NCBI RefSeq assembly: GCF_056712565.1
Contig: NZ_CM160072.1
Length of the DNA: 64,000 nt
Direction: 5' to 3' (one strand)
The notes below the pieces were generated by a model, which was not told the origin of the DNA, did not search any database, and was given only the letters and a program-made list of their open reading frames with translations. The position numbers and the translations under genes were made by a program. Every line of letters begins with the position of its first letter. Position 1 is the first letter of the stretch. Shown one piece after another: positions 27,571-34,440 of this stretch.

Positions 27571-27827
27571 TACTATGCTCCCGTAAATTCCGATTGGATA
27601 TCGGCTATGGATTGTCCTGGCCCGCCTTTTGCGGGCAATCATAATCCTGGTCGTTACGGGCGAGTTTTTCCATCTTTTGGATGTTTTTTCAGCGTTTTCT
27701 GTTGGCTCGATTCATCAGAAAAAATGTTACCGCGGTCAAGTTTTCACCGCAAAAGGTATTTAAAAGGTATTACTAAGTGGTATTGTCATCGCGTACCTTA
27801 CATTACCTGTCATGAAGGAATTAAAAG

Positions 27828-29105
27828 ATGAAAACAACAGCAAAGCTGTCGTTCATGATGTTTGTTGAATGGTTTATCTGGGGCGCGTGGTTTGTGCCAT
27901 TGTGGTTGTGGTTAAGTAAAAGCGGTTTTAGTGCCGGAGAAATTGGCTGGTCGTATGCCTGTACCGCCATTGCGGCGATCCTGTCGCCGATTCTGGTTGG
28001 CTCCATCACTGACCGCTTTTTCTCGGCGCAGAAAGTGCTGGCGGTATTGATGTTCGCTGGTGCGGTGCTGATGTATTTCGCCGCGCAACAGACCACTTTT
28101 GCCGGGTTCTTCCCGTTACTGCTGGCCTACTCGCTAACCTATATGCCGACCATTGCGCTGACTAACAGTATCGCTTTTGCCAACGTGCCGGATGTGGAGC
28201 GTGATTTCCCGCGCATTCGTGTGATGGGCACTATCGGCTGGATTGCCTCTGGTCTGGCATGTGGTTTCTTGCCGCAAATGCTGGGGTATGCCGATATCTC
28301 ACCGACGAACATCCCGCTGCTGATTACTGCCGGAAGTTCTGCTCTGCTTGGTGTGTTTGCATTTTTCCTGCCCGACACACCGCCAAAAAGCACCGGCAAA
28401 ATGGATATTAAAGTCATGCTCGGCCTGGATGCGCTGATCCTGCTGCGCGATAAGAACTTCCTCGTCTTTTTCTTCTGTTCATTCCTGTTTGCGATGCCAC
28501 TGGCGTTCTATTACATCTTTGCCAACGGTTATCTGACCGAAGTTGGCATGAAAAACGCCACTGGCTGGATGACGCTCGGCCAGTTCTCTGAAATCTTCTT
28601 TATGCTGGCATTGCCGTTTTTCACCAAACGCTTTGGTATCAAAAAGGTATTATTGCTTGGTCTGGTCACCGCCGCGATCCGTTATGGCTTCTTTATTTAC
28701 GGCAGTGCGGATGAATATTTCACTTACGCTCTCTTGTTCCTCGGCATTTTGCTGCACGGCGTAAGTTACGATTTTTACTACGTTACCGCTTACATCTATG
28801 TCGATAAAAAAGCCCCCGTGCATATGCGTACTGCCGCGCAGGGGCTGATCACGCTCTGCTGCCAGGGCTTCGGCAGTTTGCTCGGCTATCGTCTTGGCGG
28901 TGTGATGATGGAAAAGATGTTCGCTTATCAGGAACCGGTAAACGGACTGACTTTCAACTGGGCCGGGATGTGGACTTTCGGCGCGGTGATGATTGCCATT
29001 ATCGCCGTGCTGTTCATGATTTTTTTCCGCGAATCCGACAACGAAATTACGGCTATCAAGGTCGATGATCGCGATATTGCGTTGACACAAGGGGAAGTTA
29101 AATGA
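27828..29105 (+). CDS. yegT: MFS nucleoside transporter family protein YegT
   Basis: 425 aa polytopic. Confidence 0.85.
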   Translation: MKTTAKLSFMMFVEWFIWGAWFVPLWLWLSKSGFSAGEIGWSYACTAIAAILSPILVGSITDRFFSAQKVLAVLMFAGAVLMYFAAQQTTFAGFFPLLLAYSLTYMPTIALTNSIAFANVPDVERDFPRIRVMGTIGWIASGLACGFLPQMLGYADISPTNIPLLITAGSSALLGVFAFFLPDTPPKSTGKMDIKVMLGLDALILLRDKNFLVFFFCSFLFAMPLAFYYIFANGYLTEVGMKNATGWMTLGQFSEIFFMLALPFFTKRFGIKKVLLLGLVTAAIRYGFFIYGSADEYFTYALLFLGILLHGVSYDFYYVTAYIYVDKKAPVHMRTAAQGLITLCCQGFGSLLGYRLGGVMMEKMFAYQEPVNGLTFNWAGMWTFGAVMIAIIAVLFMIFFRESDNEITAIKVDDRDIALTQGEVK

Positions 29106-30106
29106 AAACAGAACGTATTCTCGGTGCTCTTTATGGGCAGGCGTTAGGGGATGCGATGGGGATGCCCTCCGAGCTTTGGCCGCGCAGTCGCGTCAAAGCA
29201 CACTTTGGCTGGATTGACCGTTTTCTGCCTGGGCCAAAGGAGAATAACGCAGCCTGTTATTTTAACCGCGCCGAATTCACCGACGATACCTCGATGGCGC
29301 TGTGTCTGGCGGATGCGTTACTGGAACGTGAAGGCAAGATCGATCCGGATCTGATTGGGCGTAATATTCTCGACTGGGCGCTGCGTTTCGACGCCTTTAA
29401 CAAAAACGTACTAGGTCCGACCTCGAAGATTGCGCTTAACGCCATTCGCGACGGTAAACCCGTTGCTGAACTGGAAAATAACGGCGTGACCAACGGCGCA
29501 GCGATGCGCATCTCGCCATTAGGTTGTTTGCTTCCGGCGCGTGATGTTGATTCCTTTATTGATGATGTGGCGCTGGCCTCCAGCCCGACACATAAATCCG
29601 ATCTGGCGGTTGCGGGGGCGGTAGTCATCGCATGGGCGATTTCTCGTGCCATTGACGGAGAAAGCTGGTCAGCAATTGTTAATTCACTGCCTTCAATTGC
29701 GCGACATGCTCAACAAAAACGCATCACTACCTTCAGCGCCTCACTGGCTGCTCGTCTGGAGATTGCGCTGAAAATTGTGCGCAATGCTGACGGCACCGAA
29801 TCCGCCAGCGAACAGCTTTACCAGGTCGTTGGCGCAGGTACCAGCACTATTGAGTCCGTTCCGTGCGCCATTGCGCTGGTTGAACTGGCACAAACCGACC
29901 CGAACCGTTGCGCCGTCCTGTGCGCTAACCTTGGCGGCGACACAGACACCATCGGTGCTATGGCGACGGCAATTTGCGGCGCGTTGCATGGCGTTAACGC
30001 TATCGATCCTGCGTTAAAGGCGGAACTGGATGCAGTAAATCAGCTTGATTTCAACCGCTATGCCACGGCGCTGGCGAAGTATCGCCAACAACGGGAGGCG
30101 ATATGA
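29102..30106 (+). CDS. yegU: ADP-ribosylglycohydrolase family protein YegU
   Basis: 334 aa, overlapping stop/start with yegT and yegV. Confidence 0.85.
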   Translation: MKTERILGALYGQALGDAMGMPSELWPRSRVKAHFGWIDRFLPGPKENNAACYFNRAEFTDDTSMALCLADALLEREGKIDPDLIGRNILDWALRFDAFNKNVLGPTSKIALNAIRDGKPVAELENNGVTNGAAMRISPLGCLLPARDVDSFIDDVALASSPTHKSDLAVAGAVVIAWAISRAIDGESWSAIVNSLPSIARHAQQKRITTFSASLAARLEIALKIVRNADGTESASEQLYQVVGAGTSTIESVPCAIALVELAQTDPNRCAVLCANLGGDTDTIGAMATAICGALHGVNAIDPALKAELDAVNQLDFNRYATALAKYRQQREAI

Positions 30107-31068
30107 GCGGCGCTCGATTACACACGCTGCTGCCTGAATTAGCCACGCATCAGCCGGTGATGGTCGTCGGCGCGGCGGTCATTGATGTGATCGCCGACGC
30201 TTATGCCCTCCCCTGGCGTGGGTGCGATATCGAACTGAAACAGCAGAGCGTTAACGTTGGCGGCTGCGCCCTGAATATTGCCGTGGCATTAAAGCGCCTC
30301 GGCATCGAAGCGGGTAATGCCTTGCCGCTCGGTCAGGGGGTGTGGGCGGAGATTATTCGCAACCGCATGGCAAAAGAGGACTTAATCAGCCTGATCGATA
30401 ACGCCGAAGGTGATAACGGCTGGTGTCTGGCGCTGGTTGAGCCGGATGGCGAACGCACTTTTATGTCATTCAGCGGTGTGGAAAATCAATGGAATCGCCA
30501 GTGGCTGGCGCGATTAACCGTTGCGCCTGGCAGCCTGCTCTATTTTTCCGGTTATCAACTGGCCTCGCCCTGCGGCGAATTGTTAGTGGAATGGCTGGAA
30601 AAGCTACAAGACGTGACGCCGTTTATCGATTTTGGCCCACGTATTGGCGATATCCCGGATGCATTACTGGCGCGGATCATGGCCTGTCGACCTTTAGTGT
30701 CACTCAATCGTCAAGAGGCTGAGATTGCCGCCGAACGTTTTGCTTTATCCGCAGAGATAACAACACTTGGCAAGCAATGGCAGGAGAAATTTGCCGCGCC
30801 GTTGATCGTTCGCCTCGATAAAGAAGGCGCATGGTATTTCAGCAACGACGCTTCTGGCTGCATTCCGGCATTTCCAACGCAAGTTGTAGACACCATTGGG
30901 GCGGGCGACAGTCATGCCGGTGGCGTACTTGCCGGGCTGGCCTCTGGTCTGCCACTGGCGGATGCCGTATTACTGGGCAATGCAGTGGCGTCGTGGGTTG
31001 TCGGGCATCGGGGCGGTGATTGTGCGCCAACGCGCGAGGAACTACTCCTCGCACACAAAAACGTATAG
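30103..31068 (+). CDS. yegV: PfkB-family sugar/nucleoside kinase YegV
   Basis: 321 aa with GAGD motif. Confidence 0.85.
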   Translation: MSGARLHTLLPELATHQPVMVVGAAVIDVIADAYALPWRGCDIELKQQSVNVGGCALNIAVALKRLGIEAGNALPLGQGVWAEIIRNRMAKEDLISLIDNAEGDNGWCLALVEPDGERTFMSFSGVENQWNRQWLARLTVAPGSLLYFSGYQLASPCGELLVEWLEKLQDVTPFIDFGPRIGDIPDALLARIMACRPLVSLNRQEAEIAAERFALSAEITTLGKQWQEKFAAPLIVRLDKEGAWYFSNDASGCIPAFPTQVVDTIGAGDSHAGGVLAGLASGLPLADAVLLGNAVASWVVGHRGGDCAPTREELLLAHKNV

Positions 31069-31788
31069 ATCGCTGCGACAGTGGCTGATGCTGTACTCAA
31101 TAGGCCGTTGCTGTTGGTCAAGCGCCACTTGCTTGATCACCAGCACCGGTATTTTGCTATCTAACTGAATATGTGACTGAAACTCGGCATCCGGCATCCG
31201 GGCGCTAACGCGGGAACGCGTACGTTGTGGGTAAATGTGCTGGCTGCGGAAGTAGTCATAAAGAGAAATCCCGATGGCATCAACATCATGAATTAAATGT
31301 GCCGGAACCCACGATTCCTCAATCGATACCGCCTCTTCATCGACATAGCGAATACGCTTAAGCAAAAAGACATCACTTCCCGCTTCGACCGCCAGCTGCT
31401 GCGCGACTTCTTCGGGACATTTCACGACACGCTTGTTAACCCATAACGTATCGGGCTTTTTCCCGCGCAATACCACCTGCTGAGAAAACCCCCGCGCTTC
31501 TTTCAGCGAGTATTCGAAGATGTTGTTGATCTGCGTGCCGTAACCACGCGAACGCGTCACCACGCCCTCTTCTTCCAGCGACTGCATCGCCTTGCGCACC
31601 GTAATGCGCGAAACGCCGGTTAACTGACTTAAATCACGCTCACCGGGCAAAATATTGCCATGCTCCAGCACCCCGCTGCGCACGGCATTTTTTACCGTTT
31701 CGGCAAACTTAATATAAAGCGGCGTGTTATCCGCCGCTAAAATACGCTCGTTCAGTTGGGCAATCAGCTGGGTATGCGCTTGTTCCAT
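31042..31788 (-). CDS. yegW: GntR-family transcriptional regulator YegW
   Basis: 248 aa; 3' end overlaps yegV 3' end by 27 nt (convergent). Confidence 0.85.
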   Translation of the reverse strand: MEQAHTQLIAQLNERILAADNTPLYIKFAETVKNAVRSGVLEHGNILPGERDLSQLTGVSRITVRKAMQSLEEEGVVTRSRGYGTQINNIFEYSLKEARGFSQQVVLRGKKPDTLWVNKRVVKCPEEVAQQLAVEAGSDVFLLKRIRYVDEEAVSIEESWVPAHLIHDVDAIGISLYDYFRSQHIYPQRTRSRVSARMPDAEFQSHIQLDSKIPVLVIKQVALDQQQRPIEYSISHCRSDLYVFVCEE

Positions 31789-31839
31789 TTGTCTTTTTCC
31801 TGCCGGGGAATCTGGTGGGAGTATATCACTGCTTCTTAT

Positions 31840-32658
31840 TTAAGGCGTTTCTTTAATCCCATCAACGAATGCCTGCAACTCCTCCACCGTGCCATTAAAC
31901 ACATTAAAATCCACCGGACCATTAATGCCATCGACCTGTCCACGGTCGGAATGCTGCCAGAAGCGCCAGGCCATGCCGTCATTGTCCGGGCGACGTTGAT
32001 AATAGTGAGCCACCCACCACGGATATTCATTGAAATAGCCCGCCAGATTGGTGTGATAAAAAACGGCTCCTGAGTAAATAATTGGCTTTTTACCCGTACG
32101 TTTTTCGACCATTTTTAGCCACTGACTTACCCGCTTGCGTAATTCTTTTGCCGATAATTTTCCCCGTTCTTCTACGTCCAGCACGGCAGGGAAATCGCCT
32201 TGTGAGAAATCCACCGTTTGCAGAAATAATCTCGCCTGAACTGAAGCAGATACCGACGGGGAAAAATAATGATACGCCCCGCGCAGCAGGCCATTTTCGC
32301 GGCTTAGTTGCCAGTTACGCGAAAAATAGGGGTCCACCAGCTTTTCGCCTTCCGTCGCCTTAATAAAAGCAAACTGTAAGCGGATACCGTTGTCGCGCAT
32401 TTTTGCCACACGCTGCCAGTCGATCCGCTCCTGCCAGCGTGAAACATCTATTCCGTGAATGGTGTAACTGGCAGGAATGCGAATAGCGAAAGATTTAACC
32501 GGGCGATAACCGTAGAAGTGGATGTAGTCTTTAATCTGAATTGCTGTCGAATAGAAAAAATTCACCGTCTGACGCGGATAAATTGCAACGATGGAAATTA
32601 GCCCAAGAGCGCATAATAAAACGGTGAATTTTTTTCGACTGGTGATTCTCAACTGCAT
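31840..32658 (-). CDS. yegX: Glycoside hydrolase family 25 (lysozyme-like) protein YegX
   Basis: 272 aa from ATG 32658; alternative start 32667. Confidence 0.75.
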   Translation of the reverse strand: MQLRITSRKKFTVLLCALGLISIVAIYPRQTVNFFYSTAIQIKDYIHFYGYRPVKSFAIRIPASYTIHGIDVSRWQERIDWQRVAKMRDNGIRLQFAFIKATEGEKLVDPYFSRNWQLSRENGLLRGAYHYFSPSVSASVQARLFLQTVDFSQGDFPAVLDVEERGKLSAKELRKRVSQWLKMVEKRTGKKPIIYSGAVFYHTNLAGYFNEYPWWVAHYYQRRPDNDGMAWRFWQHSDRGQVDGINGPVDFNVFNGTVEELQAFVDGIKETP

Positions 32659-32722
32659 TGGTTTCATCCCTGAATGTCAGCACCAAAGGCTGACAATAAC
32701 CAAAGCAGCTATAGTACGGTGC

Positions 32723-34308: not shown

Positions 34309-34440
34309 AGTTTGCTCCTGCCATAACGTGAAGAAGCAATGACCTGGTGGTCCGTGACTTCCCTACGCTGGCATTATCCAGATCAGGTGATACGGGTATT
34401 TCTCAGCCTTCACAAAGAAGGGCACCCCGAGTCGTTTGGT
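34309..34440 (-). promoter_or_regulatory. TPP (THI-box) riboswitch in thiM 5' leader
   Basis: Minus strand reads CUCGGGGUGCCCUUCUUUGUGAAGGCUGAGAAAUACCCGUAUCACCUGAUCUGGAUAAUGCCAGCGUAGGGAAGUCACGGACC, then SD and AUG. Confidence 0.8.

Follow-up and report, generated by a model that had tools for sequence, protein, structure and literature searches.

A probably frozen coding overlap between yegV and the repressor gene yegW (ggaR) of Escherichia coli, and a candidate riboside pathway for the enzymes of the yegTUV operon

We analysed a stretch of Escherichia coli DNA of 64,000 nucleotides (contig NZ_CM160072.1 of RefSeq assembly GCF_056712565.1; hereafter the window) and focused on the yegTUV operon and on yegW (ggaR), the convergently oriented gene of its repressor. 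Gene coordinates were taken from a mechanical list of open reading frames (ORFs) and from the annotation that RefSeq gives for an identical E. coli genome, which were concordant (Table 1). The genes run in the order fbaB (− strand), yegT, yegU and yegV (+), yegW (−), and then yegX, thiD and thiM (all −), and many complete E. coli chromosomes match the 5-kb stretch around the locus at 100% identity, the stretch being found in 5,417 of the 5,426 complete E. coli genomes. The locus is the already described yegTUV operon with its dedicated repressor gene; because its genes, the operon, the repressor, the region that the repressor binds and the convergent yegV–yegW pair have all been published, the locus as such carries little weight as a finding. 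What we contribute is a candidate operator, a candidate 3′ structure embedded in yegW, an account of how the overlap between yegV and yegW came to be frozen, and a biochemical proposal for YegU and YegV, which are among the enzyme pairs of E. coli that are still orphans. Taken jointly, the parts of this account (the known operon under GgaR control, a riboside pathway, a frozen overlap and an operon mRNA that ends inside yegW) seem to us fairly probable.

Table 1. Genes, overlaps and candidate regulatory features of the yegTUV–yegW locus (window coordinates).
Feature	Coordinates	Strand	Description and basis
CRP-like half-palindrome	27725-27740	+	TGTTA-N6-TCAAG upstream of yegT; candidate activator site
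O1, candidate GgaR operator	27752-27798	+	Three direct GGTAT repeats plus inverted GTACC; conservation
yegT	27828-29105	+	NHS-family MFS proton symporter; ORF list, RefSeq, Pfam, TIGR00889
O2, candidate auxiliary GgaR site inside yegT	28634-28666	+	GGTAT-N6-GGTAT-N9-GGTCT
yegT/yegU stop/start overlap	29102-29105	+	ATGA, 4 nt; GGGGAAG upstream
yegU	29102-30106	+	ADP-ribosylglycohydrolase-fold (ARH) enzyme; Pfam PF03747
yegU/yegV stop/start overlap	30103-30106	+	ATGA, 4 nt; GGGAGG upstream
yegV	30103-31068	+	PfkB-family kinase; Pfam PF00294
Candidate Rho-dependent termination zone for yegW RNA	30900-31041	−	3′ of the yegW stop codon, on the strand opposite the yegV 3′ end
Hairpin H1	31034-31052	+	GCGAGGA/TCCUCGC at the start of the overlap; 86% of cells paired, 64 sequences
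Convergent yegV/yegW overlap	31042-31068	both	27 nt; last 8 codons plus stop of yegV opposite the same of yegW
yegW (ggaR)	31042-31788	−	HutC-type GntR repressor, winged helix-turn-helix (wHTH) and UTRA domains
Hairpin H2	31063-31096	+	In yegTUV-sense RNA; 92% of cells paired
Hairpin H3	31098-31163	+	Core 31104-31150, then U-rich UAUUUUGCUAUCU; candidate yegTUV mRNA end, yegW codons ~209-231

Conservation was scanned with one genome per species, which gave 70 enterobacterial loci ranging from Escherichia to Pectobacterium and Leminorella, and the four-gene yegTUV–yegW module is conserved across Enterobacterales. Both same-strand junctions are ATGA stop/start overlaps, each preceded, inside the upstream ORF, by a purine-rich sequence that resembles a Shine-Dalgarno sequence (GGGGAAG or GGGAGG). 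The ATGA between yegT and yegU was present in 65 of 68 loci, with the upstream GGGGAAG also conserved; that between yegU and yegV was present in at least 35 of the 68, and elsewhere, where the exact start is ambiguous, GGGAGG and a nearby ATG were retained. With overlapping stops and starts and ribosome-binding sequences at both junctions, yegT, yegU and yegV would form a translationally coupled operon, as a preliminary description made from the DNA letters alone had proposed, and Pfam confirmed the four protein families that it had named (Nuc_H_symport, ADP_ribosyl_GH, PfkB, and GntR with UTRA). The span that it gave, 29102-31788, covers yegU, yegV and yegW but omits yegT, which stood in its title. 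Its phrase "uncharacterised catabolic module" holds in part: the regulator has been characterised and the structure of YegT solved, whereas the comparative evidence given below does support a catabolic or salvage role. An enterobacterial yegTUVW locus (90% YegW identity) was also present in an assembly labelled Chryseobacterium sp. 18061; it differs little from the locus of Citrobacter sp. 18056, a product of the same project (L045, L049), and the assembly is likely to be mislabelled or contaminated.

YegT is a member of the NHS family by sequence and by fold, with a divergent substrate. It matched Pfam Nuc_H_symport (PF03825) at 611 bits over profile positions 1–400 of 400 and TIGR00889 at 653 bits (cut-off 446), and the GxxxD protonation motif of transmembrane helix 10 (TM10) is present as GVSYD at residues 311–315. 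In the 3.1-Å crystal structure, D315 was described as protonated; isothermal titration calorimetry gave no significant signal with uridine, adenosine, cytidine or guanosine, and the base-contact residues of NupG were not conserved (Xiao et al., 2025; PMC11979927).

YegU scored 225 bits against PF03747 (cut-off 26) and keeps all of the di-metal motifs of that family, GDAMGMPSE (GDxxGxPxE), TDDT and GGDTDT, which align with those of ARH3 and MJ1187. It is not equivalent to DraG or Tri1, scoring 79 bits against 337 for TIGR02662 and 69 against 490 for NF041672. YegV scored 189 bits against PF00294 (PfkB) over residues 19–309, its VGGCALN and DTIGAGD segments aligning with the ribokinase motifs and the ribose-diol Asp being kept; nor is it a ribokinase equivalog, its score for TIGR02152 being 81.5 bits where the cut-off is 299.65. 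In the alignment, YegV has V, C and A where RbsK has N14, K43 and E143, which we take, from the 1RKD structure, to be ribose-contact residues. A preprint of 2025 gives YegV as a sugar kinase that is still uncharacterised.

Among 235 cluster representatives of YegU relatives (E <= 1e-30), nine of the ten long ones were fusions of ARH and PfkB domains, and both domain orders occurred. We inspected ten distant neighbourhoods of YegU relatives and found a PfkB gene adjacent or fused in nine; a transporter adjoined in 9/10 as well, drawn from four unrelated classes, namely NCS1, ECF, ABC with a substrate-binding protein (SBP), and NHS, the last in Enterobacterales alone. A GntR/UTRA regulator was present in four of the ten, and occasional extras were a nucleoside phosphorylase, an isochorismatase-family amidase and DeoB/DeoC-like enzymes. 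At one of these loci (L086:86-4172) an ARH-PfkB fusion adjoins an NCS1 permease and an isochorismatase-family enzyme, and at another (L089:1989-10733) such a fusion adjoins an ECF transporter, followed downstream by DeoB-like, NCS1 and DeoC genes; these neighbours hint at the nature of the aglycone (perhaps an amide-bearing base) and at later handling of pentose phosphates.

Because the fusions occur in both orders, the importers are interchangeable and YegT does not bind canonical nucleosides, these comparisons suggest that the operon serves to take up and degrade a non-canonical riboside and does not have its role in glycogen metabolism. We propose that YegT imports the riboside, that the PfkB-family kinase YegV would phosphorylate the 5′-hydroxyl of its ribose, and that the di-metal, ARH-fold enzyme YegU would then cleave the bond between ribosyl group and aglycone, yielding ribose 5-phosphate and the base. 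Fusion and neighbourhood evidence thereby yields a testable proposal, a riboside 5′-kinase followed by a phosphoriboside glycohydrolase, that conflicts with the current "glycogen" naming. The proposed logic is that of pseudouridine catabolism in E. coli, in which psuK, psuG and psuT (yeiC, yeiN and yeiM) provide an importer, a PfkB-family 5′-kinase and cleavage of the 5′-phosphate to ribose 5-phosphate. The two systems differ in that the presumed glycosidase of yegTUV has the ARH fold (PF03747) and not the PsuG fold, the transporter is of the NHS-MFS type, the substrate would not be a canonical nucleoside, and the regulator is a HutC-type GntR protein that is convergently encoded. A looser parallel is found in the rus loci of Bacteroidetes, which likewise combine ribokinase-family kinases, a transporter, a regulator and a variable set of ribose-releasing enzymes that include ADP-ribosylglycohydrolases (bioRxiv 10.1101/574913). 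Those loci, however, are SusC/D-based, of the polysaccharide-utilisation type and rich in glycoside hydrolases, whereas yegTUV is a minimal three-gene operon whose ARH and kinase types are linked tightly enough to be fused in other taxa.

Several points weigh against the riboside reading. Our literature search found no biochemical assignment for YegU or YegV, nor for an ADP-ribosylglycohydrolase combined with PfkB, ribokinase or riboside. The order of kinase before hydrolase, which we hold to be the most likely, draws on the fusions, on ARH chemistry and on the analogy with PsuK and PsuG; the residues in which YegV departs from RbsK count here to the extent that our assignment of them as ribose contacts is right. 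Finally, riboside catabolism offers no obvious reason why the published effector of GgaR should be ADP-glucose, or why ggaR and yegV mutants should show glycogen phenotypes.

The two enzymes might instead act in the reverse order, YegU first splitting the imported riboside into free ribose and aglycone and YegV then serving as a dedicated ribokinase. Such an order would suit the fact that the best characterised relatives of YegV are ribokinases, and the Bacteroides ribose-utilisation loci do pair ribokinases with ADP-ribosylglycohydrolases and nucleoside hydrolases (bioRxiv 10.1101/574913). E. coli, however, already possesses RbsK, and the known ARH-fold enzymes use ribose bearing a 5-phosphate or diphosphate, as a prior kinase step would supply. 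YegV, moreover, falls far short of the ribokinase cut-off (81 bits against 300) and replaces three residues that we presume to contact ribose in RbsK. We therefore regard the reverse order as a possibility, but a somewhat unlikely one.

Turning to the regulator, YegW scored 59.5 bits for PF00392 (GntR) and 125 bits for PF07702 (UTRA), which places it in the HutC subfamily, and its closest solved relative is NagR/YvoA (4u0v; E = 2e-22), with residues 22–245 aligned and the C-terminal strand included. NagR/YvoA of Bacillus subtilis is, like GgaR, a repressor of the HutC family, and differs from it in operator type and regulon. Its effectors are phosphorylated sugars, which would fit a phosphorylated pathway intermediate as the ligand of GgaR, whereas the published effector is ADP-glucose. 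YegW was renamed GgaR by Saito et al. (2024), who found one genomic target by ChIP-chip and gel shift, the fbaB–yegT spacer, with weaker binding at nt 571–869 of the yegT ORF (PMC10819704). The yegTUV genes formed a single transcript that was derepressed ~30-fold in a ggaR deletion mutant, and GgaR was present at ~20–30 molecules per cell (about 10 dimers), a level that stayed constant over growth in two media with 1% glucose (PMC10819704). Because no binding was seen at its own promoter (PMC10819704), GgaR appears to lack classical autoregulation.

In the published reading, the purpose of the operon is to tune glycogen accumulation: GgaR would sense ADP-glucose, YegU would act on ADP-glucose or ADP-ribose-like nucleotides, and YegV, as a sugar kinase, would feed glycogen synthesis (PMC10819704). 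Its support comes from gel shifts, in which ADP-glucose, and neither glucose nor ADP, released GgaR from the operator; from the ggaR deletion mutant, which held 2–3 times more glycogen and grew poorly in M9 glucose; from yegTUV mRNA, which was ~3-fold higher at 1% than at 0.25% glucose in a GgaR-dependent manner; and from an earlier screen in which a yegV mutant had less glycogen (PMC10819704). However, the authors themselves termed the functional link "somewhat ambiguous" and assayed no enzyme (PMC10819704), and the contrast between 3-fold induction by glucose and 30-fold derepression suggests that ADP-glucose is not the main inducer. YegV, in addition, lies far under every sugar-kinase equivalog cut-off, and a glycogen module leaves unexplained both why the first gene of the operon encodes an importer and why importers of four classes stand beside the ARH and PfkB pair in 9/10 distant neighbourhoods.

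The mutant used in that work was Keio strain JW2088 (PMC10819704). Caution is warranted before its phenotypes are interpreted, in that the deletion removes the putative 3′ structures of the operon and possibly the yegV stop codon. In the standard Keio design the last six codons and the stop of the deleted gene are retained; should this design hold for JW2088, 31063-31785 would be deleted, the last codon and stop of yegV (31063-31068) would be gone together with hairpins H2 and H3, and in the mutant YegV might be extended and the 3′ end of the operon altered. With the phenotypes open to that doubt as well, we judge it unlikely that the operon is a glycogen or ADP-glucose module, and prefer to see in it a route for riboside breakdown.

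The GgaR paper is silent on an operator motif (PMC10819704). An alignment of the region upstream of yegT from ~65 genomes revealed that the fbaB–yegT spacer holds a near-invariant block, AAAGGTATTtAAAAGGTATTAtt..aTGGTAt...GTACC, which we designate O1. The start-to-start distances of its three GGTAT repeats are 11 and 13–14 nt, about one helical turn, and O1 lies within a 190-bp fragment that GgaR shifted in vitro (PMC10819704). The window holds only three exact copies of the 9-mer AAAGGTATT, two in O1 and a third at 28643, which is nt 816 of the yegT ORF and thus falls within the published second binding fragment. Because the copies coincide independently with both published binding fragments, the triple GGTAT direct repeat is likely to be the recognition element, and hence the operator, of GgaR. 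The third copy belongs to a second candidate site, O2. Compared by eye, O2 and O1 agree at 22 of 34 positions; their repeats stay in register and have the same three-repeat spacing. We rejected O2 as a conserved element, its synonymous positions varying between genera; because those positions are not conserved in other genera, O2 is probably a weak, lineage-specific auxiliary site.

This arrangement recalls LacI-type single-target repressors that have an operator inside the first gene. Shared with GgaR are a low copy number and a repressor gene that lies next to its sole target, as well as a main promoter operator accompanied by a weaker intragenic site (PMC10819704); GgaR departs from those repressors in being of the GntR/HutC type, in having a triple direct repeat as its candidate site, and in an internal site that other genera have not conserved. 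Farther upstream, TGTTA..TCAA is likewise conserved in the alignment of ~65 genomes; by comparison with the consensus, the half-palindrome to which it belongs resembles a CRP site and may serve for activation.

At the other end of the operon, the coding sequences of yegV and yegW overlap by exactly 27 nt, the length that the preliminary description had given. The overlap is not an artefact of start-codon choice because a 3′-to-3′ overlap is fixed by two stop codons, and the RefSeq annotation, in which other starts or stops might have abolished it, is concordant. The codon boundaries of the two genes coincide in antiparallel register, such that codon position 1 of yegV pairs with position 3 of yegW. 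Although an antisense open stretch of 27 nt is statistically unremarkable by itself, its conservation exceeds chance: in 64 of the 68 other genomes that had both genes the overlap measured exactly 27 nt, down to 62% YegV identity.

The two protein ends that share these nucleotides differ in their freedom to change. The YegW C-terminus, ...CRSDLYVFVCEE, is nearly invariant; in the alignment with NagR/YvoA it falls on the final strand of that protein (RGDRYTFV). The last eight residues of YegV, LLLAHKNV, lie beyond the PfkB domain, the Pfam match ending at residue 309 of 321, and the variation found in this tail (K/E, N/D/H and H/D) occurs exactly at synonymous third positions of yegW. Both stop codons lie opposite a Leu codon of the other gene, CTA or TTA, to which they are complementary; for the yegV stop (TAG or TAA) that codon is Leu241 of yegW. 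At Leu241, each of the 62 full-length overlapping loci used CTA or TTA, codons that account for 12% at 18 other conserved Leu columns of yegW, a statistic that is partly circular and holds in these loci by construction, the loci having been chosen by overlap length. We therefore lean on two other observations: a simple in-place loss of the yegV stop was found in none of the 68 genomes, and the de-overlapped locus of Citrobacter amalonaticus, described below, serves as a control.

These observations would fit a frozen dual-coding arrangement in which the yegV frame came to finish on the antisense of the last eight codons of yegW. The overlapped yegW codons would encode the invariant last β-strand of the UTRA domain, and the eight-residue tail of YegV, lying outside the kinase fold, would drift solely by way of positions synonymous in yegW, with selection keeping the stop codon in place. 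On this evidence shared coding constraint would be the main reason for the overlap, with the invariant structural strand of one gene dictating the tail and the stop codon of the other.

Four genomes departed from the 27-nt overlap. In Citrobacter amalonaticus S646 (L011:6900-7107), a tandem duplication of ~80 nt at the junction has left the genes 56 nt apart; the remnant copy adds eight codons to YegV, and the functional yegW has CTG at Leu241. Citrobacter sedlakii NBRC 105722 (L022:6960-7036) has a 69-nt spacer with two short hairpins between yegV and yegW, and a YegV with a different C-terminus, REQLLVSLKR. In Yokenella regensburgei ATCC 49455 (L031:6940-6985) a 1-nt deletion within the overlap (GCAACAAAAACG for GCACACAAAAACG) frameshifts both tails, for which either sequencing error or pseudogenisation of both genes would account, and the fourth exception is a Pectobacterium with a damaged yegV.

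The overlap is dispensable, because two Citrobacter lineages have separated genes; within Enterobacterales it is nonetheless ancient and is held by double coding constraint. The locus thus offers a clean natural example of a frozen convergent coding overlap, together with natural de-overlapped controls. In distant relatives of the module the regulator gene is upstream or divergent rather than convergent.

How the two convergent transcripts end is a separate question. At the yegV/yegW junction our scan found no canonical intrinsic terminator on either strand (8 sites in 5.4 kb against 7.4 expected). One match of the terminator-like kind, a hairpin with a T-rich tail (AGCGGCGGATAACACGCCGCT TTATATTAAG) at 31718-31738 (−), lies in the 5′ part of the yegW ORF on the sense strand; such matches in the region, this one included, are at chance expectation. 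Because no terminator fits between the overlapping genes, the yegTUV mRNA probably ends inside yegW. In +-strand RNA, the 135 nt from the overlap onward fold into three hairpins, H1–H3, and of 838 windows folded on both strands over 27600-32700, the two with the lowest z-scores (−5.15) were 31032-31104 and 31092-31164, both on the + strand. The third-strongest outlier, at 32424-32496 (z −4.6 on the + strand and −3.8 on the −), lies inside the GH25 gene yegX.

Of the three hairpins, H3 is a candidate 3′ end or terminator. On the + strand it is predicted to fold at −28.7 kcal/mol (z = −5.2), compared with −22.3 (z = −2.1) on the − strand, and its stem is followed by UAUUUUGCU; the simple terminator scan missed it. 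H3 is 95.9% paired by cells, with weak covariation, and is kept in Enterobacter, Citrobacter and Pectobacterium, with a double change from G-C to U-A in the last. H1 was considered as a bidirectional terminator and rejected, as it has no U-tract on either strand and is absent in Pectobacterium. Synonymous diversity in yegW was also lower over codons 208–248 than elsewhere (0.49 versus 0.66; one-sided p = 0.005), and was lowest in the overlap (0.36). We propose that the yegTUV mRNA would end at these conserved hairpins within the yegW coding region, leaving ~125 nt complementary to yegW mRNA.

Set against this placement of the operon's 3′ end are the following observations. H3 is absent in Leminorella, and the U-tract is poor in Citrobacter. 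Paired cells over H1–H3 amounted to 92.2%, compared with 91.8% in column shuffles, so that covariation support is weak; the few compensatory changes all come from a single lineage, and the hairpins sit in conserved coding sequence. In the supplementary data of Adams et al. (2021), yegT, yegV and yegW have no 3′-end entries. A published Northern band of 3.3 kb is no test of the hairpins, and we rejected it as support for H3, the band having been seen only in the Keio deletion strain, which would lack H2 and H3. For yegW RNA, the stretch 3′ of its stop codon is unstructured (z = −0.98) and C-rich (GC skew +0.21 on the + strand, with C > G in the yegW-sense RNA), and would suit Rho-dependent termination.

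Because the coding sequences overlap by 27 nt, the yegV and yegW transcripts must overlap too, which raises the prospect of a functional excludon. Under such a scheme, induction of yegTUV would lower yegW through polymerase collision and through cleavage of the ~125-nt duplex by RNase III, giving positive feedback on a repressor present at ~10 dimers per cell. Several of the results above would agree with it: the conserved overlap length, the lack of a canonical terminator between the genes on either strand, the structured 3′ end of the operon inside yegW, the very low copy number of GgaR and its absence from its own promoter. The pair is also among the 165 convergent excludons of E. coli MG1655 called by ExcludonFinder (2025) in >=50% of 58 RNA-seq sets (PMC12288877). 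Listing as an excludon, however, is close to automatic when coding sequences overlap; most E. coli excludons overlap in untranslated regions, with a mean intergenic distance of 95 nt (PMC12288877), whereas in yegV–yegW the coding sequences themselves overlap, in codon register. Dual coding and the invariant YegW β-strand fully explain the conservation, the genes are 56 and 69 nt apart in two Citrobacter lineages, and convergence is lineage-specific, the regulator of distant relatives lying upstream or divergently. GgaR protein, moreover, was constant in the conditions examined, the two media with 1% glucose, and yegTUV mRNA was strongly raised in a strain with a cassette, of unchecked orientation, in place of yegW. 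A functional excludon at this locus accordingly strikes us as rather improbable, and any regulatory effect of the antisense overlap is probably minor or secondary to the coding constraint that we take to hold it in place. Less credible again is the wider combination in which the last ~125 nt of yegW serve as the 3′ end of the operon, the operon is induced in switch-like fashion by lowering its repressor, a non-canonical riboside is broken down by a widespread pathway of importer, PfkB kinase and ARH-fold glycohydrolase, and the effect on glycogen is a side effect.

On the published side, the GgaR paper does not mention the yegV/yegW overlap (PMC10819704). A search of the window against Rfam gave nothing in 27–32 kb, and the sole matches were a thiamine pyrophosphate (TPP) riboswitch and OrzO-P. 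The riboswitch (RF00059, 71 bits) lies upstream of thiM-thiD at 34343-34439 (−) and is annotated in RefSeq as well; the OrzO-P antitoxin RNA match (RF02083, 91.5 bits), at 53884-53957 (+), implies that the window holds, away from yegTUV, a zor-orz type I toxin-antitoxin locus.

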